53,610 nucleotides of DNA from Bacteroidota bacterium (GTDB taxonomy: Bacteria; Bacteroidota; Ignavibacteria; UBA10030; UBA8401). The stretch lies in contig JAGVPT010000159.1 in NCBI GenBank assembly GCA_020052095.1, positions 1 through 53,610 of the forward strand, written 5' to 3'. Of the stretch, positions 2,262-53,349 are shown in pieces (the stretch's first letter is position 1; the number at the start of each line of letters is the position of its first letter). The translations under genes and the position numbers were made by a program. The notes under the pieces are model-generated. The model searched no databases, had not been told where the DNA came from, and saw only the letters and a list, made by a program, of their open reading frames with translations.

Positions 2262-3404
2262 ATGGCTGACAACGAAAACCTTATCCAATCATTGCAGACG
2301 AGCTGGAAAAAAGAAAAAGCCGGCGCGGAAACGTATCGCGCGCTCGCATCGCGAGAGACGGACGAGAAACAGAGATCAATTCTCCTGAAACTCGCCGAGG
2401 CTGAAGATCTCCATGCCAAAAAATGGGAAGCACGGCTGAAAGATCTCGGCGCTGCGGCACCAGCAAGAATCGAGTCTTCATTTGAGAAAATGCGCCGTTG
2501 GCTCCTAGTGCGCAGCGGAACGGCGAATGCGGTGCAACGCCTGGAGGAACAGGAAGATCGTGACACGGATCGGTACGAGGCGGAAGCAACGCTCGCAACG
2601 AGTCCGGACGACAAGGCAGCGATGAACGAAATCAAAAAGGAAGAAAAGGTTCACGCAAAGGTCCTGCAATCGATGAATAGCAACGAGCACCCGCAGGCAA
2701 GACTGGATTCGATCTTCAAACGCGAAAAGTGGCACGCCGGACATTCGGGAGGATGGATTGGCCAGGCCGTCTACGGGGCAAACGACGGACTCGGCGCAGT
2801 CTTCGGAATTGTTACCGGGATGGCGGGCTACTCCGGCGGAAGCCATGTTGTCTGGGTCGCGGGAGTCGCCGGTACACTTGCGAGTGCACTTTCGATGGGA
2901 TCGGGCGCATATCTTTCGAGGAAATCTGAACGGGAAGTCTACGAAGCAGAGTTAGAACGAGAGCGAAAAGAAATCGAAGAAAATCCCGAAGAAGAAAAGC
3001 AGGAATTGGAATTGTTTTATCAGTTGAAAGGGTTTACCGCGACCGAAGCATCCATGATGGCGCAACGATTAACCGAAAACCCGGATCAGTTCTTGAAAAC
3101 GCTCGCCCACGAAGAATTGGGACTCTCATCATCTTCATTCCCCAATCCCGTGAAGGAAGCATTCTCCGCCACAGCCGCAACAGCCGTCGGAGGAATCATC
3201 CCCGTGATCCCCTTCATCTTCTATTCCGGTACATTGGCAATCGTACTCAGTCTTGTCATTAGCACGATTGCGCATTTTTTGGTCGGCGTGTTGAAGACAA
3301 TCGTCACCGGGCGAAGTTGGTGGCGCAGCGGGATGGAAATGACGTTGGTGGGATTGCTCACGGCAGCTATCGCATACGCCGTCGGCATGTTTCTGAGTCC
3401 TTAG
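2262..3404 (+). CDS. Rubrerythrin/ferritin-like domain fused to a VIT1/CCC1 transporter (MbfA-like iron exporter)
   Basis: N-terminal E..Y..LA / E..H ferritin-like motifs (EKAGAETY, EDLH, EKVH). C-terminal VIT1 motifs VYGANDGL and SALSMGSGAYLS. Start at ATG 2262 (MADNENL). Confidence 0.88.
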   Translation: MADNENLIQSLQTSWKKEKAGAETYRALASRETDEKQRSILLKLAEAEDLHAKKWEARLKDLGAAAPARIESSFEKMRRWLLVRSGTANAVQRLEEQEDRDTDRYEAEATLATSPDDKAAMNEIKKEEKVHAKVLQSMNSNEHPQARLDSIFKREKWHAGHSGGWIGQAVYGANDGLGAVFGIVTGMAGYSGGSHVVWVAGVAGTLASALSMGSGAYLSRKSEREVYEAELERERKEIEENPEEEKQELELFYQLKGFTATEASMMAQRLTENPDQFLKTLAHEELGLSSSSFPNPVKEAFSATAATAVGGIIPVIPFIFYSGTLAIVLSLVISTIAHFLVGVLKTIVTGRSWWRSGMEMTLVGLLTAAIAYAVGMFLSP

Positions 3405-3491
3405 TCCTTGGTCCTTGGTCCTTGGTCCTGGGTCCTGGGTCCTGAGTCCTGAGTTCCTAATTCTTAATTCATAATTCTTAATTCATAATTC
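3397..3491. repeat. Compound heptamer tandem array: (GTCCNNN)x8 followed by (AATTCWW)x5
   Basis: GTCCTTA GTCCTTG x3 GTCCTGG x2 GTCCTGA x2 ... AATTCTT AATTCAT AATTCTT AATTCAT AATTC. The start of the array overlaps the VIT1 stop codon. Confidence 0.95.
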
Positions 3492-3494
3492 AAC

Positions 3495-4697
3495 ATGCCT
3501 CGTCAGCACAACGCAGTCATCGTCGACGCTCTCCGCACTCCCGTCGGAAAATACGGCGGAGCTCTCAAAGACGTTCGCGTCGATGACATGAGCGCACTCA
3601 TCCTTCGCACTTTGGTTGAGCGAACGAAACTTGACCCGGCACTTATCGAAGATGTTTTTTGGGGATGCGCCAATCAAGCGGGTGAAGACAACCGCAACCT
3701 CGCACGTATGGCTGCCTTACTCGCGGGATTTCCGCAGTCGGTCCCCGGCACAACAATCAATCGGTTGTGCGGCTCTTCTCTCGAAGCTATCATCCAGGGC
3801 GCACGAGCGATCTGGTCCGGAGAGAACCAGGTTGTCATCGCCGGCGGTGCCGAAAGTATGACCCGGGCGCCGTACGTATTTTCAAAGAACGTCTCCGGCA
3901 GTGCGTTGCACGGAAATCTCACGGCATACGACACCTCACTCGGCTGGCGATTTCCTAATCCGAAAATGGAGAAGATCATTCCCCTCGAGAGCATGGGCGA
4001 AACAGCGGAAAATGTTGCAGAAAAATATTTGGTGAAGAGGAGCGATCAGGATGAATTCGCTCTGAATAGTCATCGAAAGGCTGTTGCCGCACGGAGTAGA
4101 CTCGCTGAAGAAATAGTCACCGTGGAAGTCCCAACGAAAAACGGCTCCATAAAAATCTCTGCCGATGAAGGGCCGCGTGAAGACACTTCTATAGAAAGAC
4201 TCTCCAAGCTCAAGCCCGCATTCAGAGAAAACGGATCGGTTACGGCTGGTAATTCGTCGTCGTTGAACGATGGCGCTGCGGGACTCATCATGATGTCGGA
4301 AGAAAAGGCGAATGCTTTCGGATTGAAACCGCTCGCGAGAATAATTTCGAGCGGAGTCGCCGGAGTTGACCCGCGATGTATGGGCATCGGTCCGGTCCCG
4401 GCCACTCAAAAGGCGCTTCAGAAAGCGAATATCAAGACAAGCGATATCGGATTGATTGAACTGAACGAAGCATTCGCCGCCCAGTCGATCGCTGTCATTC
4501 GAGAATTGAAATTGGATGGCTCACTTGTCAACGTGAACGGAGGCGCAATCGCACTCGGGCATCCCCTCGGATGCAGCGGCGCGCGGATCATGACAACGCT
4601 CGTTCACGAAATGCGCCGCCGCGACGTTCGCTTCGGACTTGCAACGATGTGCATCGGAGTGGGACAAGGAATTGCGGTTGTCGTGGAGAAGGGGTGA
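3495..4697 (+). CDS. Acetyl-CoA C-acyltransferase (thiolase), PcaF/PaaJ-like
   Basis: GCANQAGEDNRNLARMA, NRLCGSS (catalytic Cys), LGWRFPNP, NEAFAAQ, GGAIALGHPLGCSG and MCIGVGQG. Confidence 0.95.
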   Translation: MPRQHNAVIVDALRTPVGKYGGALKDVRVDDMSALILRTLVERTKLDPALIEDVFWGCANQAGEDNRNLARMAALLAGFPQSVPGTTINRLCGSSLEAIIQGARAIWSGENQVVIAGGAESMTRAPYVFSKNVSGSALHGNLTAYDTSLGWRFPNPKMEKIIPLESMGETAENVAEKYLVKRSDQDEFALNSHRKAVAARSRLAEEIVTVEVPTKNGSIKISADEGPREDTSIERLSKLKPAFRENGSVTAGNSSSLNDGAAGLIMMSEEKANAFGLKPLARIISSGVAGVDPRCMGIGPVPATQKALQKANIKTSDIGLIELNEAFAAQSIAVIRELKLDGSLVNVNGGAIALGHPLGCSGARIMTTLVHEMRRRDVRFGLATMCIGVGQGIAVVVEKG

Positions 4698-4701
4698 GGT
4701 T

Positions 4702-4734
4702 GGAAGGATGAATTAGGAATTAAGAATTATGAAG
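4702..4734. repeat. Left heptamer arm of the four-helix-bundle cassette
   Basis: GGAAGGATGAATTAGGAATTAAGAATTATGAAG. Inverted relative to 5097-5126 and the exact reverse complement of 9596-9628. Confidence 0.9.
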
Positions 4735-4756
4735 GGGGAAGCATGAGGGGGGGGAA

Positions 4757-5103
4757 GTGGAAAATCTGGTATCGCGAACGAAGAAATTTGCGCTACGGGT
4801 AATTCGATTATACAGTTCGTTGCCAAAACAGACTCTTGCACAAGTTCTTGGCAAGCAGGTATTGAGATCGGGAACCTCGGTTGGCGCGAACTACGAGAAG
4901 CATTCCGGGCGCATTCGTCAGCAAAATTTGTAGCCAAGATGGGAGATTGCGTGAAGGAATTGGAGGAGACTTCTTATTGGTTTGAGCTTCTCCTTGACAC
5001 AAATCTAATAACGACCGAGAGGCTGCATCCATTGCAGGATGAATGCAATCAATTGCTCTCAATCTTCGTGTCCATCATCAAACGCAAGAAAAGAAATTCA
5101 TAA
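4757..5103 (+). pseudogene. Four-helix-bundle protein (TIGR02436 / 23S rRNA intervening-sequence protein family), one-base frameshift; absent from the ORF track
   Basis: GTG start reads MENLVSRTKKFALRVIRLYSSLPKQTLAQVLGKQVLRSGTSVGANY. Adding one C at ~4894 (AAC TAC [C]GA GAA GCA) continues REAFRAHSSAKFVAKMGDCVKELEETSYWFELLLDTNLITTERLHPLQDECNQLLSIFVSIIKRKKRNS*. This matches the family pattern Q.LRSGTSVGANY.EA....S...F..K......EL.ET.YW.ELL. Confidence 0.9.
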
Positions 5104-5126
5104 TTCCTAATTCATGATTCTTCCTT
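5097..5126. repeat. Right heptamer arm of the four-helix-bundle cassette
   Basis: TTCATAATTCCTAATTCATGATTCTTCCTT. It contains the gene's stop codon and abuts the ALDH ATG. Confidence 0.85.
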
Positions 5127-6629
5127 ATGAAAGAATACGCCCTTTACATCAACGGCTCCTTCGTCGACTCCGACACGCTCCAGTCCTTCGCCTCCCTCAA
5201 CCCGTACAACCAGGAGACAGTCGCGCGAATAGCGCGCGCCGGCGTCGCCGATACGCAAAACGCGATTCGCGCGGCACGCAAAGCATTCGACGATGGTCCG
5301 TGGCCGCGAATGCCCCTCACCGAACGAGCCGCGTTCCTGAAAGCCATTTCAGACAAGATCAACGAACGGGCGAAGGAGTTGATTGCGCTGGAGGTGGACG
5401 ATTCCGGCTCGACACTCCGCAAAGCGAAGGAAGATATTTTCCTGAGTGCGCGGTGCATGAATTATTTTTCAAAGCTGGCAGCGAACGAGCTGACCGAGAA
5501 TATCGAGGGACTGTCTAAGCCCGGCTTCTCCCAGAATTTGATTGTGCACGAGCCGATCGGAGTGGTTGCCGCGATTATTCCCTGGAATTTCCCGCTGAAG
5601 ATGGCGGTGTGGAAACTCGGTCCTGCACTCGCTGCGGGGAACACGATTGTGCTGAAACCATCCGAACTGACGCCGTGCACCGCAATGGAACTGGCAAAGA
5701 TCTGCCACGAAGTTGGAATTCCGAAGGGAGTCGTGAATATCATCCCCGGATTTGGGGAAGATGTCGGGGAAGAGCTGGCGAAAAATCCGATGGTGGATAA
5801 AGTTTCTTTCACGGGTTCGACAGTCGTTGGCCGGCGGGTTATGTCGCTTGCTTCCTCTTCGCTCAAGAAATGCACTCTTGAATGTGGTGGCAAATCGGCT
5901 AACATTGTCCTGGACGACGCCGATTTGAATCTCGCGATAGACGGCGCGATGTACGCGATCTTTTATCATGCGGGACAATGCTGTGAAGCCGGAAGCCGGC
6001 TTCTCCTACCGGAAACAATTCACGACGATTTTGTCGGGAAGCTTGTTGCGAAAACTGCAAAAATAAAACTCGGCGATCCTAAACTAGAAACCACCGATAT
6101 GGGACCGGTGATTTCGAAGAAACAACAGGATAGGATTCTCGGATATATAGCTAAAGGAAAATCAGAAAACGGAACGCTGTCGTCGGGCGGCGGGATCCCC
6201 TCCTCCCTTGAATTGAAAAACGGATTCTTCGTAGAGCCGACGATCTTCACAAACGTTGAGAACAAATCGACGATCGCGCAGGAGGAAATTTTCGGTCCCG
6301 TCCTCTCTGTGATCAAATATAAAACGACAGTCGACGCTGTCCGGATTGCAAACGATTCAACGTACGGACTCGGCGCCGGCGTTTGGTCATCGGACAAAGT
6401 AAAAGCACTGAGCATCGCCAGACGGTTACGAGCAGGAACGGTTTGGATCAACGAATGGCACTTGATTTCCGAAAAAGCGCCGTTCGGCGGATATAAACAG
6501 AGCGGCGTCGGCCGCGAGTTTGGTGTGGATGGACTGAAGGAGTACACCGAGACAAAGCACCTCCACATCGACGAAGTCGGCTCGCGCGAAAAGAAATTCT
6601 GGTACGACACGGTTGTGCCGAAAGAGTGA
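5127..6629 (+). CDS. NAD(P)-dependent aldehyde dehydrogenase
   Basis: IIPWNFP, LKPSE, FTGSTVVG, LECGGKS, GQCCEAGSR, EEIFGPV and PFGGYKQSGVGRE. Confidence 0.96.
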   Translation: MKEYALYINGSFVDSDTLQSFASLNPYNQETVARIARAGVADTQNAIRAARKAFDDGPWPRMPLTERAAFLKAISDKINERAKELIALEVDDSGSTLRKAKEDIFLSARCMNYFSKLAANELTENIEGLSKPGFSQNLIVHEPIGVVAAIIPWNFPLKMAVWKLGPALAAGNTIVLKPSELTPCTAMELAKICHEVGIPKGVVNIIPGFGEDVGEELAKNPMVDKVSFTGSTVVGRRVMSLASSSLKKCTLECGGKSANIVLDDADLNLAIDGAMYAIFYHAGQCCEAGSRLLLPETIHDDFVGKLVAKTAKIKLGDPKLETTDMGPVISKKQQDRILGYIAKGKSENGTLSSGGGIPSSLELKNGFFVEPTIFTNVENKSTIAQEEIFGPVLSVIKYKTTVDAVRIANDSTYGLGAGVWSSDKVKALSIARRLRAGTVWINEWHLISEKAPFGGYKQSGVGREFGVDGLKEYTETKHLHIDEVGSREKKFWYDTVVPKE

Positions 6630-6794: not shown

Positions 6795-7124
6795 ATGGAC
6801 CACACACTTGTCACAACAAACTTCCAACTCGACGGATACAAGATCACAAAAAACCTCGGCGTCGTTCGGGGGATCGTCGTTCGTTCGCGATCGTTGATCG
6901 GCAATATCGGAGCTGGATTTCAAATCCTCTTCGGTGGAAATATCACCCTCTATACGAATTTGTGCGAGCAAACACGTCGCGATGCGTTCGAGGTGATGAT
7001 CCAACATGCCGCGCAACTCGGCGCAAATTCCGTCATAGGCTTCCGTTACGACGCTACAGAGATTATGGCCGGCGTAAGTGAAGTGCTCGCCTATGGAACG
7101 GCGTGTGTAGTGGAAAAAGTGTAA
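6795..7124 (+). CDS. YbjQ / UPF0145 family protein
   Basis: GYKITKNLGVVRG, GG....YT.L.EQTR..A, GAN.VIG.RYD and EVLAYGTA. Confidence 0.93.
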   Translation: MDHTLVTTNFQLDGYKITKNLGVVRGIVVRSRSLIGNIGAGFQILFGGNITLYTNLCEQTRRDAFEVMIQHAAQLGANSVIGFRYDATEIMAGVSEVLAYGTACVVEKV

Positions 7125-7199
7125 TAAAGTTGTTATTTTAGATGTAGTTTTTCACTTTCAGAATAAGCTGCTTTTTCTCTTCCGCTGAAAGGGGGCTGT

Positions 7200-9503
7200 A
7201 TGATCGCGAACTTGTGTTTCTCCGTTATAGTTACATTCTCTTTCGTTGCTCTTCCCTCCCTCATTGCTCAACAGCGTGTCCTTCTCCGCATAAACAAAGA
7301 TGGGCAACAAGAGGCGATTTCCATTCGCAAAGGCGAACGTACGGAAGATGTTCTTTCGCGCTTGGATAAAATGGCTCCTGATACTCGTGCTTCTGGTCCC
7401 AGAGACTCCATTTTCAATTTCGGTCCAAACGGCGCGACGAATTTTATCGCCAGCCATCAGGACGTGATGTTCCAGTGGTTTGATCCACAGGCAAGCGGAC
7501 TAGTCCTTGAGTTCGGTTGGAGAAACGGCGCTGACCTCGGGACCATCAAAAAGTCTACTATCCGGGCATGGCAAGGAGACAAACGACTTACGTCCCTACC
7601 CTCGAATGCAATGTCTACAAGTGGGACGGGCTTACCGGGAAATATGGGTTACTATAAAAAATCTGACGATGGCGATGGTCTGAAGACGCCCTTCAGGGAT
7701 GATGCAACGGATACGAATTTTGTCGGCGGCAAAGGTGACTCCCTTACGACTCGCTTCGATCCACTCGGGAAAGAAGCCAAATGGTTACTAGGCGGGCGAC
7801 AATTTTCCCTCGTGCCGGACGCGTGGCAGTCCTTCAAGCTCCTTGACTTCGGTGATTCAATGGTGTTTGCCGCCCATCAACCGTTCGGCTTCACGAAGCA
7901 AAACGACACTAAATTTAGTGACCTCGGCGGATCAATAGACGACGTGAACCAGTTGATCGCTGCAAACGGAGTCGATGCATATCCTTTTCATTCCATCAAA
8001 TTCTATGAAGGAAAACCGGCCAGCAATTATGGGTGGCAAATCCGTGACTATGAATGGAATATGTATGTAATTGTCACGTACACTACGTGTCGCCCCCCGA
8101 AGATCACATACACCCAATTGCGCACAACATTGAAGACGACGCCAAGAAAAGTAAGCGCGACCATTTACGGTTATGACTGTGACGGGCTGACTGAGATAAG
8201 CTCTGTCGACCTATTCAATAAAATGAACAGCGGTGCGTATATCCAGTCTCCAATGACGGGGACTGCACCGAACTACACAGGAACCGTCCCCGGCGCAAAT
8301 CCTGGTGACACGGTAACGTATTACATTACCGCAACCTTCTCAAGTAATTCAACTTTAAGAACAGTTAACACAATGTATACTATTTTCAAACCGACGAAAA
8401 ATGTTCTGTATCTCTGGAACGGCCGGAGTGTTCCAGCGGGCTTTGCTTCACCTACCGTCCTGGCAAGATATGGTATGATGTTGGATAGCACAAATGAAAA
8501 AGTGTACTATGATGTTTGGGATGTTAAAAAGTATGGTACCGATGATATCCCAACCTTGCTGCCATATTATGATCACGTCGTCGAATCGACGGGAGATGGT
8601 GGGTATGCCGACTTAACAATGTTCGCCGGTGGATGGCTGGCTAAAGGTACACTGGTAAAGCCGAAATCATGGTTCTGGTCCGATCAGGACCACGGATTCA
8701 TCAGCAACTTTGATGATACAACATTTTCTGATACTGACCCTCATGCAAAATACTTTGGCGTAAAATCGCTCATTAATCAGGATTATCCGTACTCAGCAAA
8801 CGGGAACGCTAGTCTGACGAAGCCGTGGCAGTTGGATCTCGTTGCCAAAACCGATGATGCGTTCGGCTATATCGATACAAAGATGGCAAAGGACACAGTA
8901 ACCTATTGGTACGATCCGAATTATGAAATGCCGCCGTTCCTGAACTGGATGGATCAATTTGTCCCAACAGCCGGTGCTGTCACGCTTTTCAAGGACAAGA
9001 AAACCAACACCATCATCAACGGAGTACGGAACACCGCAGCAGACAGGTCGTGGTATACCGTGTGGCTTGCGTTCGATTACCTCTCCACAGATTTCCGCAG
9101 TGATACTTCAAGGGCAAAATACGCTACGCCTCGCGCCGACCCCAAGTATAAGTGGATTCTTGACGTTGGGAATCCAATTCGGGAATTCGTTCTACCGAAA
9201 TTGATAGTGGGTAATTCTAAGATGGATGTGGCGGTGTCAAGTAAGTTCTCATTGCAGCAAAACTTCCCAAACCCGTTTAACCCCGTTACAGTGATCAGTT
9301 ATCAGTTAGCAGTAAACAGTTTTGCCACGGTGAGGGTGTATGATCTCCTCGGCCGGGAAGTTGTGACGCTGATGAACGAGGAGAAGTCCGCTGGGAGTTA
9401 CACGGTACAATGGGACGCGACACATATTGCCAGTGGCGTCTATTTCTACAGATTGCAGGCCGGCGCATTCTCCGACACAAAAAAACTCTTGCTCTTGAGG
9501 TGA
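7200..9503 (+). CDS. Secreted protein with a T9SS type-A C-terminal sorting domain; function unknown
   Basis: Signal peptide, an Ig-like segment (YTGTVPGANPGDTVTYYITAT) and C-terminal FSLQQNFPNPFNP...SGVYFYRLQAG..S.TKKLLLLR. Confidence 0.88.
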   Translation: MIANLCFSVIVTFSFVALPSLIAQQRVLLRINKDGQQEAISIRKGERTEDVLSRLDKMAPDTRASGPRDSIFNFGPNGATNFIASHQDVMFQWFDPQASGLVLEFGWRNGADLGTIKKSTIRAWQGDKRLTSLPSNAMSTSGTGLPGNMGYYKKSDDGDGLKTPFRDDATDTNFVGGKGDSLTTRFDPLGKEAKWLLGGRQFSLVPDAWQSFKLLDFGDSMVFAAHQPFGFTKQNDTKFSDLGGSIDDVNQLIAANGVDAYPFHSIKFYEGKPASNYGWQIRDYEWNMYVIVTYTTCRPPKITYTQLRTTLKTTPRKVSATIYGYDCDGLTEISSVDLFNKMNSGAYIQSPMTGTAPNYTGTVPGANPGDTVTYYITATFSSNSTLRTVNTMYTIFKPTKNVLYLWNGRSVPAGFASPTVLARYGMMLDSTNEKVYYDVWDVKKYGTDDIPTLLPYYDHVVESTGDGGYADLTMFAGGWLAKGTLVKPKSWFWSDQDHGFISNFDDTTFSDTDPHAKYFGVKSLINQDYPYSANGNASLTKPWQLDLVAKTDDAFGYIDTKMAKDTVTYWYDPNYEMPPFLNWMDQFVPTAGAVTLFKDKKTNTIINGVRNTAADRSWYTVWLAFDYLSTDFRSDTSRAKYATPRADPKYKWILDVGNPIREFVLPKLIVGNSKMDVAVSSKFSLQQNFPNPFNPVTVISYQLAVNSFATVRVYDLLGREVVTLMNEEKSAGSYTVQWDATHIASGVYFYRLQAGAFSDTKKLLLLR

Positions 9504-9524
9504 AATCTACTAGTTTTTTAGTGC

Positions 9525-9628
9525 AAGGATGAATTAGGAATGAGGAATTGTCAGAAATCAAAATGCTTTCTGACCAGCAGCTATAAATATCTGTTCTTCA
9601 TAATTCTTAATTCCTAATTCATCCTTCC
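9525..9628. repeat. 'Empty' inverted heptamer cassette (same arms as the four-helix cassette, short spacer)
   Basis: Perfect 17-bp inverted repeat AAGGATGAATTAGGAAT (9525-9541) / ATTCCTAATTCATCCTT (9610-9626). Confidence 0.9.
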
Positions 9629-9677
9629 TCCTTCAACTTTTTCGTTCATCTACTACTCATATAACCAGGAAACTCGC

Positions 9678-14331: not shown

Positions 14332-14442
14332 AAGGATGAAGGACGAATTATGAATTATGAAGAGGAGGTGATGGTACTGCTTTATTAGTCACCCTCTACT
14401 TCTACTCCACAATTCCTATTTCATAATTCCTAATTCATAATT
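14332..14442. repeat. Inverted heptamer cassette between two co-oriented permease genes
   Basis: AAGGATG AAGGACG AATTATG AATTATG ... AATTCCT ATTTCAT AATTCCT AATTCAT AATT. Confidence 0.85.
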
Positions 14443-14443
14443 G

Positions 14444-15685
14444 CTACTCATACCGCAACGCTTCCACCGGATCAAGCTTCGACGCCCGGTTCGCCGGAAG
14501 AAAACCGGAGACGACGCCGACGATGATCGAGATGAGGATAGCTATTCCAACAACGCTCAGCGGCATCGATGTCGGCAAAATCTGATTCACAAGCAAACTC
14601 AACGGATACGAAATGATGATACCGATGATCCCGCCAATGAGAGAGAGAGACGCTGATTCGACCAAAAACTGGAGCAAGATCGTGCTACGTTTCGCACCGA
14701 TCGCCTTCCTGATCCCGATCTCCTTAGTCCGTTCCGTGACCGATACGAACATAATATTCATGATCCCGATGGCTCCGACGAATAACGAAAGAGCGGTGAT
14801 GAATAATCCGATTCCAGCAACGACGGCACCGATAGCGTTGAACGTCTGGATGAACATCTCCTGCTGATTGATGGCAAAATCATCTTCTCCGGTTGGCGGA
14901 ACATGACGGGCCTTCCGAAGAATGCCGCGCAGCTCTTCTTTGGTATCGTCCAGATTCTTGATGTCGGCGGCTTTGACATTGATCTGAATTCCTCGATTAG
15001 CACCGAACCTCCGGATGAACCCTTCGATGGGGACAACAATTCGGTTATCGAGGCTTTCGATTCCAAGAAGACTCCCTTGCTTCTCCATTACTCCTATAAC
15101 GCGGAAGGTTGATGTCCCAATTCTTATCGTCTTTCCGAGAGGAGTCTCATTGGGGAAGAGGTTTTCCGCGACTTCCGATCCTAAAACGCATATCGGCCTT
15201 CCGCCGTCGGACTCCGCTTGATTGAAAAACCGGCCGAAGTCCATTGAAACCCCGCCTGTCTCCAGGTACTGATCGTTCGCGCCGAGAGTAAGTACACCTT
15301 CGGAGCTTTGGCCCTTATACTTCACGGGGGCTCGCGTCCCGGCCATCGGGGTGGCGGATTTGATCAGCGTGGCGTGGCGTTCAATGGCGTCGAATTGCGG
15401 CATCTTTATGTCCTTCCTGTTCCGGTACTTCCACCACTCCCCTTCACCGCCAAACCAGGGCCACTTCTGAACATACAACACATCCGCGCCGATTTTGGAA
15501 ATGCTATCGTTGAAACCGCGGCTGAGCCCCTCGATCGCGGTCCCCATCAGCGTCACCGAAACGATTCCGATCACGATTCCGAGCGTGGTCAACACCGAGC
15601 GCATCTTATTCGCACGGATCGCCTGAAAGGAAATCGCCAAGCCCTCTTTCAACTCGTATGCAAAATCTGCAATTCTCATTCCCAT
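14444..15685 (-). CDS. MacB/FtsX-family ABC transporter permease (paralog)
   Basis: NKMRSVLTTLGIVIG, GIMNIMFVSVTERTKEIGIRKAIGA and LDPVEALRYE. Confidence 0.95.
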   Translation of the reverse strand: MGMRIADFAYELKEGLAISFQAIRANKMRSVLTTLGIVIGIVSVTLMGTAIEGLSRGFNDSISKIGADVLYVQKWPWFGGEGEWWKYRNRKDIKMPQFDAIERHATLIKSATPMAGTRAPVKYKGQSSEGVLTLGANDQYLETGGVSMDFGRFFNQAESDGGRPICVLGSEVAENLFPNETPLGKTIRIGTSTFRVIGVMEKQGSLLGIESLDNRIVVPIEGFIRRFGANRGIQINVKAADIKNLDDTKEELRGILRKARHVPPTGEDDFAINQQEMFIQTFNAIGAVVAGIGLFITALSLFVGAIGIMNIMFVSVTERTKEIGIRKAIGAKRSTILLQFLVESASLSLIGGIIGIIISYPLSLLVNQILPTSMPLSVVGIAILISIIVGVVSGFLPANRASKLDPVEALRYE

Positions 15686-25016: not shown

Positions 25017-25032
25017 GAGTTCGTGGCGTGTA

Positions 25033-25105
25033 GTCCTTGGTCCTGAGTCCTGGGTCCAAAGTCCTAGGTCCTAATTCTTAATTCCTAATTCTTAATTTCT
25101 AACTC
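25033..25105. repeat. Compound heptamer array: (GTCCNNN)x5-6 plus (AATTCYT)x3-4
   Basis: GTCCTTG GTCCTGA GTCCTGG GTCCAAA GTCCTAG GTCCT AATTCTT AATTCCT AATTCTT AATTTCT AACTCCT. Confidence 0.92.
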
Positions 25106-29390: not shown

Positions 29391-31544
29391 ATGAAATACA
29401 TTTTCCGACCTGTCCGCTGGGGCGGATTTCTTTTTGTCGTGTTCTGCCTATTCACCACTACGAGTTCATTGCATGCTCAATGGATCCAAACCAACGGCCC
29501 CTACGGCGGCTACGTTCGTGCTTTTGCCGTCTCCACCAACGGGGCAAGCGGCACGAATACCTTTGCCGGGGCTACTTTCAACGGCGGCGTCTTTCTTTCC
29601 ACCAACAACGGTCTAAGCTGGACTGAGGTCGATACCGGCATGACGAACACTAATGTCAATGCTCTTGCCGTCTCCGGCACAAATCTCGTCGCAGGGACTT
29701 CAGACGGCGTCCTTTTTTCCTCCAACAACGGCACAAGCTGGCGTGCAATCGATACCGGCTTGGTGAACACTGTTGTGTTTTCTCTTACTGTCTCCGGCAC
29801 AAATCTCTTTGCCGGGACTTCTGACGGCGTCTTTCTCTCCACCAACAACGGCGTAAGCTGGAGTGCAGCGAGTACCGGTTTGACGAACACTAATGCCATT
29901 GCCCTTGCTGTCAAGGGCACGAATCTTTTTGCAGGGACTTATGATGGCGTCTTTCTTTCTGTCAACAACGGCACAAGCTGGAGTGCAGTCAATACAGGCT
30001 TGACGAACACCAATGTCGATGCTTTTGCAGTCTCCGGCACGAATCTCTTCGCCGGAAGTGATGGTGGCGGTGTCTTTCTTTCCACCAACAACGGCACAAG
30101 CTGGAGTGCAGCGAGTAGCGGCTTGACGAGCACTAACGTCTACGCTCTTGCTGTCTCCCCCAACGGGGCAGGCGGCACGAATCTCTTTGCCGGGACCTAC
30201 GGCGGCGTCTTTCTTTCCACCAACAACGGCACGAGCTGGACACAAACCGACTTGACGACAATTGTCCGTGCTCTTGCCTTCTCCGGCATGAATTTGTTAA
30301 GTGGGATGCATGGCGGTGGAGTCTTTCTTTCCACCAACAACGGCACAAGCTGGACACAAACCGGCTTAACGAAGACTGATGTCACGGCTCTTGCCGTATC
30401 CGGCACGAATCTCTTTGCGGGGACTTTAACCGGCGGCGTCTCTCTTTCCACCAACAACGGCATAAGCTGGAGACAAACCGGTGTGATGAACGGTAATGTC
30501 TACGCTCTTGCCGTCTCCAGCACGAACCTTTTTGCCGGAACTTTTGGCGGAGCCTATCGTTCAAGCGACAACGGTACAAACTGGACTTGGGTTAGTACCG
30601 GCTTGACGAACACTCATGTCCGTGCTTTTGCCGTCTCCCCCGACGGGGCAGGCGGCACGAATCTCTTTGCCGGGACTTTTGACAATGTCTTTCTTTCCAA
30701 CAACGACGGCACAAGCTGGACTGCAACCAACTTGCAGGGCGCATATGTTAATGCTCTTGCCATCTCCAGTACGAATCTCTTTGCGGGGATCACCTTTGGC
30801 GTCTATCTTTCCACTGACAACGGCACAAGCTGGAATGCGATGAGTACCGGCTTGACAAACACTTATGTGACGGCTCTTGCCGTCTCCGGCACGAATCTCT
30901 TTGCCGGGACTTTTGGCGGTGGCGTCTTTCGTTCCACCAACAAAGGCTCAAGCTGGACTGCAGTCAATACCGGCTTGACGGACAAAACTGTCCAAACCCT
31001 TGCTGTCTCCGGCACGAATCTTTTTGCCGGAACTTATGACGGCGTTTTTCTTTCCACCAACGACGGCAGCAACTGGACTGCGGTCAATACCGGCTTGACG
31101 GACAAAACTGTCCAGACCCTTGCCGTCTCCGGCACGAATCTCTTTGCCGGGACTTATGAAAGCGGTGTCTGGAGACGACCGTTGTCGGAAATATTAACCT
31201 CAGTGCCCGCGGAAGGCGGGTCGACCGACTTGCCGACCCATTTCAGTCTTGAGCAGAATTATCCGAACCCGTTTAATCCGACAACACATTTACGATTTAC
31301 GATTGCAGATTTACGATTTGTTACGCTGGCGGTCTTCGATCTGGTCGGGCGGCAAGTGGCAACGCTGGTGAAGGAAGAGATGAATCCGGGAAGTTATGAA
31401 GTAACTTTTGATGGGACCGGTTTGGCGAGCGGCATCTATTTCTACCGTTTTGTGGCGAATGCATCTTCCAAGGGAATCCCTTTGGGACATTCAGGACAGG
31501 CTGGCTCATTCACCGAGAGTAAGAAGCTTCTTTTGCTCAGATGA
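29391..31544 (+). CDS. BNR/Asp-box repeat beta-propeller protein with a T9SS type-A sorting domain
   Basis: Signal peptide; 13 copies of a ~40-aa unit (LAVSGTNLFAGT..GVFLSTNNGTSW); C-terminal FSLEQNYPNPFNP...SGIYFYR...KKLLLLR. Confidence 0.92.
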   Translation: MKYIFRPVRWGGFLFVVFCLFTTTSSLHAQWIQTNGPYGGYVRAFAVSTNGASGTNTFAGATFNGGVFLSTNNGLSWTEVDTGMTNTNVNALAVSGTNLVAGTSDGVLFSSNNGTSWRAIDTGLVNTVVFSLTVSGTNLFAGTSDGVFLSTNNGVSWSAASTGLTNTNAIALAVKGTNLFAGTYDGVFLSVNNGTSWSAVNTGLTNTNVDAFAVSGTNLFAGSDGGGVFLSTNNGTSWSAASSGLTSTNVYALAVSPNGAGGTNLFAGTYGGVFLSTNNGTSWTQTDLTTIVRALAFSGMNLLSGMHGGGVFLSTNNGTSWTQTGLTKTDVTALAVSGTNLFAGTLTGGVSLSTNNGISWRQTGVMNGNVYALAVSSTNLFAGTFGGAYRSSDNGTNWTWVSTGLTNTHVRAFAVSPDGAGGTNLFAGTFDNVFLSNNDGTSWTATNLQGAYVNALAISSTNLFAGITFGVYLSTDNGTSWNAMSTGLTNTYVTALAVSGTNLFAGTFGGGVFRSTNKGSSWTAVNTGLTDKTVQTLAVSGTNLFAGTYDGVFLSTNDGSNWTAVNTGLTDKTVQTLAVSGTNLFAGTYESGVWRRPLSEILTSVPAEGGSTDLPTHFSLEQNYPNPFNPTTHLRFTIADLRFVTLAVFDLVGRQVATLVKEEMNPGSYEVTFDGTGLASGIYFYRFVANASSKGIPLGHSGQAGSFTESKKLLLLR
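31466..31487. repeat. Degenerate copy of the 22-bp palindrome inside the T9SS sorting domain
   Basis: TTCCAAGGGAATCCCTTTGGGA compared with TCCCAAAGGGATCCCTTTGGGA at 38697. Confidence 0.8.
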
Positions 31545-40442: not shown

Positions 40443-40555
40443 GTCCGTAGTCCGCAGTCCTGAGTCCGAGGTCCAAAGTCCAAGGTTCGGAAAACTGGGG
40501 TTTGATCTTCAATTCCTAATTCATCCCTCATCTCTTCTCTCTTTTCTCTTATCTC
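40443..40555. repeat. Compound heptamer array: (GTCCNNN)x6 plus AATTC / ATCYCTY-type units
   Basis: GTCCGTA GTCCGCA GTCCTGA GTCCGAG GTCCAAA GTCCAAG ... AATTCCT AATTCAT CCCTCAT CTCTTCT CTCTTTT CTCTTAT. Confidence 0.9.
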
Positions 40556-44270: not shown

Positions 44271-44311
44271 AGTCTTCTTCGGTTTGGTCTAACAATAAGG
44301 TTGTCTCTCTT

Positions 44312-44370
44312 TTCATAATTCTTATTTCATAATTCCTAATTCATCCCTCATCCCTTATCCCTCTTCCCTT
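44312..44370. repeat. Heptamer array (right-arm type)
   Basis: TTCAT AATTCTT ATTTCAT AATTCCT AATTCAT CCCTCAT CCCTTAT CCCTCTT CCCT. Confidence 0.88.
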
Positions 44371-46394: not shown

Positions 46395-46462
46395 CTACAA
46401 TTTGCGAAAGTGATTTTTGGTCGGATTCAATATAGAGCATCTTCAAAAGAGAATCAATAAGA

Positions 46463-46587
46463 AATGAGCAATGATCAATCACCAATGATCAATGATGAAT
46501 GATCGATGGAAAACACTGGTATTTGTATCATAAATCATGGTTTTTCATTACTCATTGCTCATTGGTGATTGATCATTGCGCATCATT
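46463..46587. repeat. Inverted heptamer cassette (AATGATC / GATCATT family) with a perfect 21-bp inverted repeat
   Basis: GCAATGATCAATCACCAATGA (46468-46488) / TCATTGGTGATTGATCATTGC (46559-46579). Confidence 0.92.
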
Positions 46588-49623: not shown

Positions 49624-49783
49624 AGTCCGGGGTCCTGAGTCCGTAGTCCGAGGTCCTGAGTCCGTAGTCCAAAGTCCAAGGTCCGTAGTCCGGGGTCGGC
49701 AGATCAGAGTATTGAATCCTGTCTCCCGAATCCTGAATTCTGTATTCAGAATTCCTAATTCTTAATTCCTATTTCATAATTTC
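49624..49783. repeat. Longest compound heptamer array: (GTCCNNN)x10 plus ATYCTGW and AATTCYT units
   Basis: GTCCGGG GTCCTGA GTCCGTA GTCCGAG GTCCTGA GTCCGTA GTCCAAA GTCCAAG GTCCGTA GTCCGGG ... ATCCTGT CTCCCGA ATCCTGA ATTCTGT ATTCAG AATTCCT AATTCTT AATTCCT ATTTCAT. Confidence 0.95.
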
Positions 49784-53270: not shown

Positions 53271-53349
53271 GGTGGTAGGGATGAGGGAAGAATGATGAAT
53301 TAGGAATTAGGAATTGGGTATTAGGGATTGGGAATAAGGAATCGGGAGT
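53269..53349. repeat. Heptamer array (left-arm, purine-rich type)
   Basis: AGGGTGGT AGGGATG AGGGAAG AATGATG AATTAGG AATTAGG AATTGGG TATTAGG GATTGGG AATAAGG AATCGGG. Confidence 0.88.

Follow-up and report, generated by a model that had tools for sequence, protein, structure and literature searches.

Between a thiolase gene and an aldehyde dehydrogenase (ALDH) gene of a Bacteroidota bacterium (Ignavibacteria, UBA10030; assembly GCA_020052095.1), there is a small gene of the TIGR02436/PF05635 four-helix-bundle family that is enclosed by inverted arrays of 7-nucleotide (nt) repeats. The locus lies in contig JAGVPT010000159.1, which was analysed over its whole length of 53,610 nt and is referred to below as the window; the genome is designated G000 and its congeners G001 onward. 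A preliminary description of the window had reported a four-helix gene at this place, missed by the open reading frame (ORF) track and set within inverted 7-nt arrays. Both the gene and the arrays were confirmed, the whole gene occupying 4757-5103 in two adjacent frames within a thiolase-ALDH spacer of 429 nt. The features of the locus, with the source of each assignment in brackets, are as follows.

3495-4697, plus strand: upstream host gene, thiolase, 400 aa (Pfam Thiolase_N, 1.1e-77; Thiolase_C, 3.8e-50)
4702-4734, plus strand: left arm, consisting of the outer unit AAGGATG, then GAATTAG, GAATTAA and GAATTAT (inverted-repeat detection)
4735-4756, plus strand: purine-/G-rich leader GGGGG...GGGGGGGG, putative ribosome-binding site just 5' of the GTG start (sequence)
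4757-4933, plus strand: four-helix-bundle gene, N-terminal portion of 58 aa, opening with GTG and cut short by a premature TAG (TIGR02436, PF05635)
4894-4895, plus strand: frameshift site, 1 nt missing relative to relatives (contigs of related strains, G002/G003 orthologues)
4873-5103, plus strand: frame with the C-terminal part, true continuation from about 4895, stop codon TAA at 5101-5103 (TIGR02436, PF05635)
5095-5126, plus strand: right arm, reverse-complement heptamers TTCATAA, TTCCTAA, TTCATGA and TTCTTCC (inverted repeat, TRF, GAATTAN scan)
5127-6629, plus strand: downstream host gene, ALDH, 500 aa (Pfam Aldedh, 1.6e-172)

The profile search that had been proposed in the preliminary description placed the gene in the TIGR02436/PF05635 family, as both halves of the protein exceeded the TIGR02436 cut-off of 24 bits: the N-terminal half scored 36.0 bits (profile positions 3-49) and the C-terminal half 48.2 bits (43-108). 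Against PF05635 the halves scored 28.6 and 36.3 bits (cut-off 33.8; profile positions 7-54 and 46-103), and these two families were the sole Pfam and NCBIfam matches of the protein.

What the preliminary description had missed is that the window copy is frameshifted, which is also why the ORF track overlooked the gene. A deletion of one base after 4894 results in the premature TAG at 4931-4933, and the copy thus lacks the uninterrupted frame of about 115-125 codons expected in the family. An extra A is present behind 4894 in one contig each of sequencing runs X1 and X2, which are from one study and represent related strains, and this base restores the frame; the orthologues in G002 and G003 have unbroken frames of 119 aa. 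Judging from these comparisons the gene copy is inactivated by the 1-nt deletion in this assembly, and either a mutation or an assembly error could be responsible. The family motif GxxRxxxSxxxNxxE, that is R-x3-S-x3-N-x2-E (PMC3936711), is interrupted at the same point: its R, S and N are present (LRSGTSVGAN), the frameshift falls just after the N and before the E, and the E is regained with the extra A of the related strains. In the G002 and G003 orthologues this part reads ANYRE.

The left arm begins 4 nt past the thiolase stop codon, the stop codon of the four-helix gene is inside the right arm, and the last base of the right arm directly precedes the ALDH start codon. Both arms are period-7 arrays of GAATTAN-type heptamers as called by TRF, and the segments 4704-4733 and 5097-5126 are 87% complementary over 30 nt at a distance of 363 nt. 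The pairing of the arms into a long stem, as put forward in the preliminary description, was also predicted by RNA folding, in which the arms formed the terminal helix in both the minimum-energy and the centroid folds of 4690-5135; the predicted fold of this whole stretch had z = -3.06 relative to 100 shuffles.

The start region was variable among orthologues. At the thiolase-ALDH junction of G002 and G003 (L044, L045) the only in-frame start is an ATG within the last heptamer of the left arm, ATA or GTA stands where the window has the GTG start, and the window copy carries a 16-nt G-rich insertion relative to both. By eye, a similar G-run was present 5' of the start in other family copies of the genome. 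Four sequencing runs could be aligned to the stretch, all as contigs of related strains about 88-99% alike, none of which spans the whole stretch.

Association of inverted heptamer arms with the four-helix gene family

Nine of the 12 PF05635 loci in this genome were flanked by complementary arms, compared with 8 of 642 random ORFs of at least 150 aa that were taken from the same genome as a control set (ungapped scoring at +1/-1.5 in 230-nt flanks, with an inverted score of at least 12 as the threshold). Two of the remaining three loci scored 10 and 11 and had visibly periodic arms, and the third is at a contig end, with only 112 nt upstream. The heptamer differed from locus to locus (AGGCAAT, TAAGTTT, CAGTAAT, ATTACAAG, GAGACGT, GGTCCAA, AAAGTTG, GAATTAG and others). 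When arms were compared across loci, the best partner of an upstream arm was its own downstream arm in 10 of 11 rows of the matrix; the median score was 17 on the diagonal and 8 off the diagonal, where the maximum was 14.5.

The family was found in 29 of 31 genomes of the same order (this one counted), with 1-17 matches each, and the flanks of the same-order loci returned had an identical design with locus-specific units. A scan of one genome per species with one paralogue as the query returned 80 loci from Ignavibacteria (including the best match, 73% identical), Bacteroidota, Planctomycetota, Verrucomicrobiota, Acidobacteriota, Desulfobacterota, Chloroflexota, Clostridia, Actinomycetota, Gammaproteobacteria and one genome of the candidate phyla radiation. 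Most of these 80 loci had inverted arrays, for example of AGGCAAT, AGGCACA, AGGGAAT, AGTCACT or AGCGTAT, and arms were always present around close protein relatives (57-73% identical) in Ignavibacteria, Bacteroidota, Chloroflexi, Clostridia and deltaproteobacteria.

Among 120 evaluable loci pooled from this order and many phyla, 84 had an inverted score of at least 12, which is an undercount since some start codons were mis-assigned; 12 passed in the direct orientation and 3 when a flank was reversed without being complemented. The dominant period was a lag of 7 in 61 of the 84 armed loci. Ungapped complementarity with these two controls was used in place of RNAduplex energies, which were dominated by GC differences between phyla and put 19 of 80 loci below a 1% threshold when the flanks were judged against a cross-locus control. 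Arms also passed at 21 of 30 loci (30 returned of 34 matches) from five named isolates: Alcanivorax 4 of 4, Cerasicoccus 7 of 8, Hanamia 5 of 8, Aquimarina 4 of 8, and Collinsella 1 of 2. The arm-gene-arm arrangement is a genuine unit, statistically tied to the family in this genome and across phyla, and the enrichment that the preliminary description had proposed to look for was found at both scales. This unit is called the cassette in what follows.

Matches of the family on plasmids were mostly from Nostoc, Calothrix and Anabaena. On plasmid pANA02 of Anabaena sp. 90 (L308, NC_019429.1, 43095-45815), which carries a type I-D locus, the order was cas6-[GGTGACA]n-gene-[TGTCACC]n-cas4; another plasmid copy had a short right arm only. 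A phage collection contained no match to the family.

Comparison of orthologous sites showed that the arms and the gene come and go together. The thiolase-ALDH junction is filled, with both arms and gene, in G000, G002 and G003, and the same junction in G001, G004, G005, G007 and G009 is 11-113 nt long and contains no heptamers. Arms and gene have therefore been gained or lost as a whole, in agreement with the claim of the preliminary description that they form one unit and with its suggestion that filled and naive alleles might both be found among relatives. Where a locus was retained, its two arms changed in concert. One locus conserved across the genus and into a second genus had the same variant unit in both arms within each genome, and the units differed between genomes (AAGTTTT, ACGTTTT, AGGCTAT, GAGTTTT); in a second syntenic series the arms likewise changed unit together. 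Many cassette loci are old, being syntenic across the genus or the family. In short, the association with the family is strong, orthologous loci are not always filled, and the arms vary together rather than independently.

Unit similarity also followed protein similarity. Of 114 loci, 63 had a definable unit (three of these entries are duplicates of one locus), and for these the mean unit distance was 3.5 between proteins less than 30% identical and 2.2 between proteins at least 60% identical (Mantel r = -0.32; none of 2000 permutations was as low). The number of heptamer units per array ranged from 3 to more than 20.

The cassettes were oriented with respect to their neighbours, defined as the longest ORF of at least 70 aa on each side. 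The downstream neighbour was on the same strand as the cassette at 103 of 113 loci, the upstream neighbour at 88 of 117, and both at 78 of 109; orthologous loci recur in this set, so these counts are not independent. Pfam searches of the neighbours placed cassettes between SdhA and SdhB (in a flavobacterial metagenome-assembled genome and a verrucomicrobial isolate), GroES and GroEL, HisA and HisF, and LeuA and LeuB. At two loci (L002 and L042) an S-adenosylmethionine (SAM) riboswitch (RF00521; 44.1 and 37.0 bits, gathering score 36) was detected upstream of the cassette. At L002 (G000:C194) the riboswitch is at 1918-1995 on the minus strand, and the translation of the gene 3' of the riboswitch and cassette resembles, by eye, a homocysteine methyltransferase; the cassette is thus located between the riboswitch and the gene that it presumably controls. 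The locus with this riboswitch is the one, described above, that is conserved across the genus and into a second genus. In one relative a cassette was located between tRNA-His and tRNA-Glu, and an Rfam scan of 13 loci gave no rRNA match. Eighteen genes of the family have been reported inside cas operons, for example between cmr3 and cmr2 (PMC3936711), and the family has been listed as linked to CRISPR (PMC10910872). Rather than a CRISPR function, this published association may indicate that cassettes settle in operons.

Dispersed arrays, gene-less hairpins and heptamer load

Arrays of the GAATTAN type were also present elsewhere in the window. The preliminary description had regarded some of these as empty cassettes and others as lone arms. 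They are listed here with the method of detection.

3393-3492, no strand assigned: two abutting arrays 5' of the thiolase gene, CTGGGTC x8.4 (3393-3451) and TTCATAA x5.6 (3454-3492) (TRF)
9525-9628, no strand assigned: gene-less hairpin, arms 9525-9551 and 9596-9628, loop of about 45 nt (GAATTAN scan)
14339-14446, no strand assigned: gene-less hairpin, arms 14339-14361 and 14409-14446, 49-nt loop (GAATTAN scan)
25071-25105, minus strand: single arm of 5 units, abutting a GTCCTAG-type array at 25032-25074 (TRF, GAATTAN scan)
40511-40528, minus strand: short remnant of about 2 units with an AGGGATG-type end (GAATTAN scan, 14-mer search)
44311-44348, minus strand: single arm, 4 units, AGGGATG end, directly adjoining a TCATCCC array (TRF, GAATTAN scan, 14-mer search)
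49744-49782, minus strand: arm of 5 units (TRF, GAATTAN scan)
53290-53347, plus strand: arm of at least 5 units near the window end (TRF, GAATTAN scan, 14-mer search)

The two gene-less hairpins are real, and the loop of the second opens with a remnant-like GAGGAGG-N-ATG stretch. The supposed lone arms near 3457, 25071, 44315, 49748 and 53290 held up as arrays of 4-5 units, and the one at 40511 was reduced to about 2 units. Not all of them are alone. The array at 3454-3492 is a GAATTAN-family arm in right-arm orientation that pairs, inverted, with 4710-4733 across the thiolase gene (score 21), and 49713-49781 pairs weakly with 53297-53347, 3.5 kb away (score 16).

Some of these arms were nearly identical to those of the cassette. 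Positions 4702-4734 and the reverse complement of 9596-9628 were identical at 33 of 33 nt, and the terminal 14-mer of the left arm, AAGGATGAATTAGG, had five exact copies in the genome, all of them at outer array ends. Ten of the 42 GAATTAN arrays in the 3.9-Mb assembly are within the 53.6-kb window, a clustering that suggests local spread of one repeat family.

The hairpin at 9525-9628 was polymorphic among relatives. A similar hairpin was present at the orthologous intergenic site, upstream of a conserved gene, in G011 and a possible decayed one in G010, and none was seen at this site in 9 of the 11 congeners examined. The surrounding region was unusual in itself: about 2.5 kb of extra DNA (7125-9666) separates a YbjQ-like gene (6795-7124) from a conserved gene starting at about 9680, two genes that are only 25-110 nt apart in eleven congeners. 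Part of this extra DNA has matches at many sites across the genus and resembles a repeated domain.

Gene-less hairpins of the AATGATC type at 46453-46583 in the window and at G000:C133:12459-12570 had similar loops of 36-37 nt, and at least some empty hairpins are therefore copies of one another, loop included. In the sequencing runs, joints that skip 361-368 nt between the arms were considered as products of excision and rejected, because the matching sides were 20-27 nt long with unrelated letters between them. We take them to come from gene-less hairpins of this repeat family elsewhere, be it at other loci or in other organisms. A tandem repeat at 29583-31159 (period 120/243 nt, about 13 copies, 68-75% match), which apparently encodes a repeat protein with GGVFLSTNNGTSW-like units, is unrelated to the heptamer system.

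Heptamer arrays also occurred around ordinary genes. At G000:C121:33227-34999 an ALDH-like gene (473 aa) is enclosed by nested arrays in mirror image: on the left a GTCC-type array stands outside a CATTG-type one, and on the right are the complements of both. In a sugar-nucleotide/polysaccharide cluster (G000:C130:400-7800), nearly every gap between genes holds GTCC/GGAC-type arrays in alternating orientation, and one of these gaps contains a four-helix cassette.

Period-7 arrays were called genome-wide by TRF, a strict period scan being too stringent for degenerate units. There were 454 period-7 rows in this genome, and 60, 258 and 205 rows of periods 6, 8 and 9. The window contig (C264) had 34 merged period-7 arrays, or 0.63/kb, which is about seven times the median of 0.089/kb for the 61 contigs longer than 20 kb. 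At least 28 inverted array pairs with loops of 0-171 nt formed empty hairpins. Single-linkage clustering of the units was uninformative, as it chained 446 of 454 arrays into one family, and unit families were instead defined by a 5-mer core, which left 207 of 485 arrays unassigned. Several of the resulting families had one gene-bearing copy: AGTCC/GGACC (42 arrays), AATTA (25), AGTAA (21), AAAGT (13) and AGGCA (9). AATGA, the largest family (78 arrays on 51 contigs), and AGGGA (16) had no gene-bearing copy in the assembly.

The density of period-7 rows was compared between the whole of this genome and samples of 243-400 kb from six relatives, as follows.

0 family copies: 1.7 period-7 rows per 100 kb
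0 family copies (second genome): 1.4 period-7 rows per 100 kb
1 family copy: 2.9 period-7 rows per 100 kb
2 family copies: 6.0 period-7 rows per 100 kb
8 family copies: 6.2 period-7 rows per 100 kb
14 family copies: 6.2 period-7 rows per 100 kb
12 family copies (this genome): 11.6 period-7 rows per 100 kb

Other periods ranged from 2.7 to 5.7 per 100 kb in the seven genomes. These values hint that the period-7 excess tracks the copy number of the family, among related genomes that differ in GC content.

An intervening-sequence-type reading and its alternatives

The closest known counterparts of the cassette are the ORF-bearing intervening sequences (IVSs) of 23S rRNA genes in Leptospira and Coxiella. 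They carry the same protein family (S23p/PF05635) in the loop as the window cassette does, they have terminal inverted repeats that form a stem (a stem that is predicted for the cassette), and they reside inside a host transcription unit, as the positions of the cassettes likewise indicate. In the Coxiella IVS, RNase III cuts within the inverted-repeat stem, two or three tandem heptamers of variable copy number precede the S23p ORF, and the authors viewed the IVS as a selfish or formerly mobile element (PMC4990558). The cassettes differ in being located between protein-coding genes and not in an rRNA helix (helix 9, 25 or 45), in having whole heptamer arrays on both sides, and in occurring as many paralogous copies per genome, each with its own unit, together with gene-less relatives. 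Processing by RNase III has been demonstrated for the IVS and is proposed for the cassette; an RNase III gene is present in this genome (C219).

Because the anatomy of a 23S IVS is combined here with an mRNA context, the cassette was read as an IVS-type element dependent on read-through. We regard the chances as about even that the locus belongs to a widespread type of cassette, equivalent to the ORF-bearing 23S IVS but free-standing, that is processed from its host transcript. The cassette would consist of a promoter-less TIGR02436/PF05635 gene with a strong ribosome-binding site, enclosed by inverted 7-nt arrays, and would reside in host transcription units, oriented like the following gene and relying on host read-through. 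Its host sites would include the thiolase-ALDH junction, junctions between operon genes or between a riboswitch and its gene, tRNA spacers and, from the literature, rRNA helices. On the read-through transcript the arms would form a long, imperfectly paired stem, the gene lying in its loop, and RNase III would cut this stem, as it does in rRNA IVSs, freeing the cassette RNA and leaving the flanking host cistrons usable without re-ligation. Arms and gene are gained or lost as one, with the arms changing in concert and the unit tracking the protein phylogeny, and the gene-less hairpins would be dispersed relatives from the same repeat families. The anatomy of the cassette, its family membership, its tie to the arms, the presence or absence of the whole, the concerted change of the arms, and the co-orientation and operon positions are observed; co-transcription, stem formation in vivo, cutting by RNase III and any mechanism of mobility are steps that we infer. 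Dependence on transcription is favored because of the orientation bias and the operon positions, and a copying step at the DNA level is favored because of the near-identical dispersed arm ends and a lack of G:U bias in the arms, described next.

Several observations weigh against this reading. The 316 mismatches between arms included 70 of the G:U type (sense) and 80 of the A:C type (antisense), that is, no G:U bias. A helix maintained as RNA by selection would usually have one, and the sequence therefore carries no indication of such selection; copied arms that decay neutrally, or a constraint acting on the DNA, would agree with what is seen. By score, about 30% of the loci lacked arms (36 of 120 pooled, 9 of 30 in the isolates), and, as the bracketed ALDH-like gene on C121 demonstrates, inverted arms are not exclusive to the four-helix family. 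In the copy on plasmid gamma of Nostoc sp. PCC 7120 (L307, NC_003267.1, 13897-16614), the heptamer arrays of the two sides lack complementarity (upstream AAACTTC, downstream CTTCTGC/CCTCTGC); an IS transposase gene lies on either side of this copy, which may have arisen by rearrangement of a cassette. At the window locus, a stem that reaches the ALDH start codon would mask the initiation region of that gene unless cut or melted. None of the sequencing runs listed as containing this stretch was an RNA run. Finally, in the ALDH tree G002 and G003 formed a clade and the placement of G000 was not settled, so that the tree would accommodate one gain of the cassette as well as several losses.

A second account, which we consider possible but rather unlikely, is that the cassette is a mobile element acting at the DNA level, of the foldback, miniature inverted-repeat transposable element (MITE) or REPIN type. 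Its arrays would serve either as terminal repeats or as hairpins of single-stranded DNA, the RNA stem would be incidental, and either a recombinase or transposase supplied from elsewhere or the four-helix protein itself would recognize the arrays and move both cassettes and gene-less hairpins. In repetitive extragenic palindrome (REP)/REPIN-RAYT systems a single gene is located between inverted copies of a short dispersed repeat that elsewhere forms gene-less hairpin doublets, also within operons, and there are several repeat families, each with its own gene-bearing copy. The window cassette is similar in that its gene is flanked, in inverted orientation, by a dispersed repeat which makes up gene-less hairpins as well, but its cargo is a four-helix bundle and not an HUH/Y1 (IS200/IS605-like) transposase, its arms are tandem 7-nt arrays and not single palindromes, and the largest repeat family is without a gene-bearing copy. 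Eukaryotic foldback transposons and MITEs likewise have long terminal inverted repeats of short tandem units, occur with and without cargo, and show presence/absence polymorphism. They belong to another domain of life, however, and the cassette is strongly oriented to host transcription. As for the ends of such elements, the conserved terminal 14-mer marks the outer ends here, and the naive junctions are too diverged for a target-site duplication to be read.

Much of the distribution of the arrays agrees with an account of this kind. Filled and naive alleles exist at the thiolase-ALDH junction, and a gene-less hairpin is polymorphic at another orthologous site; dispersed arms are nearly identical (33 of 33 and 30 of 30 nt), with the terminal 14-mer found five times at outer array ends; GAATTAN arrays are concentrated in one window (10 of 42); the arm mismatches lack a G:U bias; proteins 57-73% identical are always armed in groups as distant as Ignavibacteria and deltaproteobacteria; several repeat families comprise one gene-bearing copy and many gene-less ones; and over the seven genomes the period-7 density was 1.4-1.7 per 100 kb with no family copies and 6-11.6 with 2-14 copies. 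On the other hand, no transposase, integrase or target-site duplication was identified, although no search aimed at integrases was made, and a 115-aa helical bundle has no known catalytic activity. Searches of PADLOC and the PDB were uninformative in this respect: three of four family proteins had no PADLOC match and the fourth only a weak Cas11e match (E 8.8e-4) that was disregarded, and the PDB, searched by sequence and by profile, returned only 2GSC and 2RLD, uncharacterised relatives with five chains each. The largest repeat family (AATGA, 78 arrays) is without a gene-bearing copy in the assembly, the co-orientation with the downstream gene (103 of 113) is unexpected for an element with its own expression signals, and many loci are old and syntenic across the genus or family. 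A HEPN-like kinship of the family, for which a literature search of HEPN with IVS terms gave no support, is not claimed.

It is less probable still, and in our judgment improbable, that the protein encoded by the cassette binds the arrays as a series of tandem sites. As a pentameric ring it would take up one heptamer in each subunit, in the manner of TRAP-type RNA binding or iteron-type DNA binding; by occupying the arms it would control its own translation, processing or stability, and every paralogue would be tuned to its own heptamer. The relatives 2GSC and 2RLD are deposited with five chains each, the Xanthomonas protein has been described as a pentameric toroid, and Avd as a positively charged pentameric barrel that binds RNA stem-loops beside a duplex of the sequences flanking the template (PMC4990558; 10.1101/2023.10.23.563531). 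Paralogues within a genome each carry a unit of their own, more similar proteins have more similar units across phyla, and the left arm ends just 5' of the ribosome-binding site, all as such binding would have it. The correlation between protein and unit is, however, predicted equally well by co-inheritance of gene and arms. Arrays do not keep to five units, the unit itself changes between loci whose proteins remain orthologous, and a core-plus-spacer design of the unit was not supported, since its two most variable positions were adjacent in 24 of 62 arrays compared with 20.7 expected (p = 0.22). Neither the foldback/REPIN nor the binding-site account is exclusive of the IVS-type reading, with which both are compatible.

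Two further explanations can be set aside quickly. That a small gene came to lie by chance between two arrays of a repeat-rich genome is highly improbable: although period-7 rows outnumber those of any neighbouring period, the contig has about seven times the median density and arrays flank or punctuate ordinary genes on C121 and C130, chance does not account for arms at 9 of 12 family loci as opposed to 8 of 642 controls, for locus-specific complementarity, for a design that recurs in unrelated phyla and isolates, or for naive alleles that lack both gene and arms. The gene is almost certainly not an Avd accessory protein of a diversity-generating retroelement (DGR), for although Avd (bAvd, NF033474/PF22296) is a distant homologue, said in the preliminary description to share the fold and itself a pentameric helical bundle that acts on RNA with pairing flanks, and one paralogue (L001) scored 29.6 bits against NF033474, this did not reach the equivalog cut-off of 80 bits, the window halves gave no match, no reverse transcriptase or template and variable repeats are near the window gene, and the only RVT_1 match of the genome is on C36, which has its own Avd and none of the 12 family loci.

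The C36 locus (L144, G000:C36:1-3290) appears to hold a complete DGR, with an ORF containing an FGE-sulfatase domain, an Avd gene and a reverse transcriptase, and is adjoined by a transposase-like ORF. Its Avd scored 100.9 bits against NF033474 and also matched PF22296. No period-7 arrays were found at this DGR locus, its Avd gene included, which served as a negative control.

Implications for the gene family

The preliminary description had proposed the arrangement as an undescribed system. This applies to the arrays around free-standing genes and not to the rest, as ORF-bearing rRNA IVSs with inverted-repeat stems are already known. In the literature searched, the coverage of which was incomplete, heptamers were noted only for the IVS of Coxiella (PMC4990558), and free-standing genes of the family were nowhere described as flanked by inverted heptamer arrays, although an earlier description is possible. 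Heptamer repeats as such are familiar from several bacteria. Cyanobacterial short tandemly repeated repetitive (STRR) sequences are comparable intergenic tandem 7-nt repeats. TAACTGA heptamer repeats have been reported from intergenic regions near start codons in Beggiatoaceae, Cyanobacteria and Bacteroidetes, where they precede genes in direct orientation, only one set of about 170 being inverted; that report does not mention the four-helix family and nowhere uses the terms 'intervening sequence', 'four helix' or 'S23' (PMC4679880). The taxa with these TAACTGA and STRR heptamers are partly those of the cassette family.

For the large, uncharacterised TIGR02436 family, the arms provide a testable feature, a nucleic-acid architecture that travels with the gene. 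They also tie the heptamer excess of some bacteria to a specific gene family, the excess being absent where the gene was not found among the seven related genomes. The cassette is a candidate origin for the rRNA IVSs, unexplained since about 1990, which would then represent one landing site of a general transcription-unit cassette. In addition, long hairpin-forming repeats persist within essential operons, which bears on RNA processing and genome stability. The finding also calls for caution with guilt by association: cassettes were found downstream of a riboswitch and within other operons (sdh, groE, his, leu) as well, and neighbourhood alone is therefore no guide to function.

A bolder proposal, which is unlikely but has wider consequences, is that PF05635/TIGR02436 proteins and 7-nt arrays constitute a self-propagating system across phyla, in which a ring protein recognizes its own heptamer, one per subunit, and helps to copy or maintain both the cassette and the gene-less hairpins, with insertion occurring wherever a transcript can be cut at a long stem. 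RAYT transposases, which are thought to act on REPINs, offer a model for such a system. If this were true, the tolerated sites would be operon junctions, leaders, tRNA spacers, cas operons and rRNA helices, the classical rRNA IVSs would be only the visible tip of the population, and much of the unexplained heptamer excess of bacteria, including filamentous cyanobacteria, would be its footprint. Taken together, these data suggest that a widespread and little-described cassette lives inside the transcription units of other genes.

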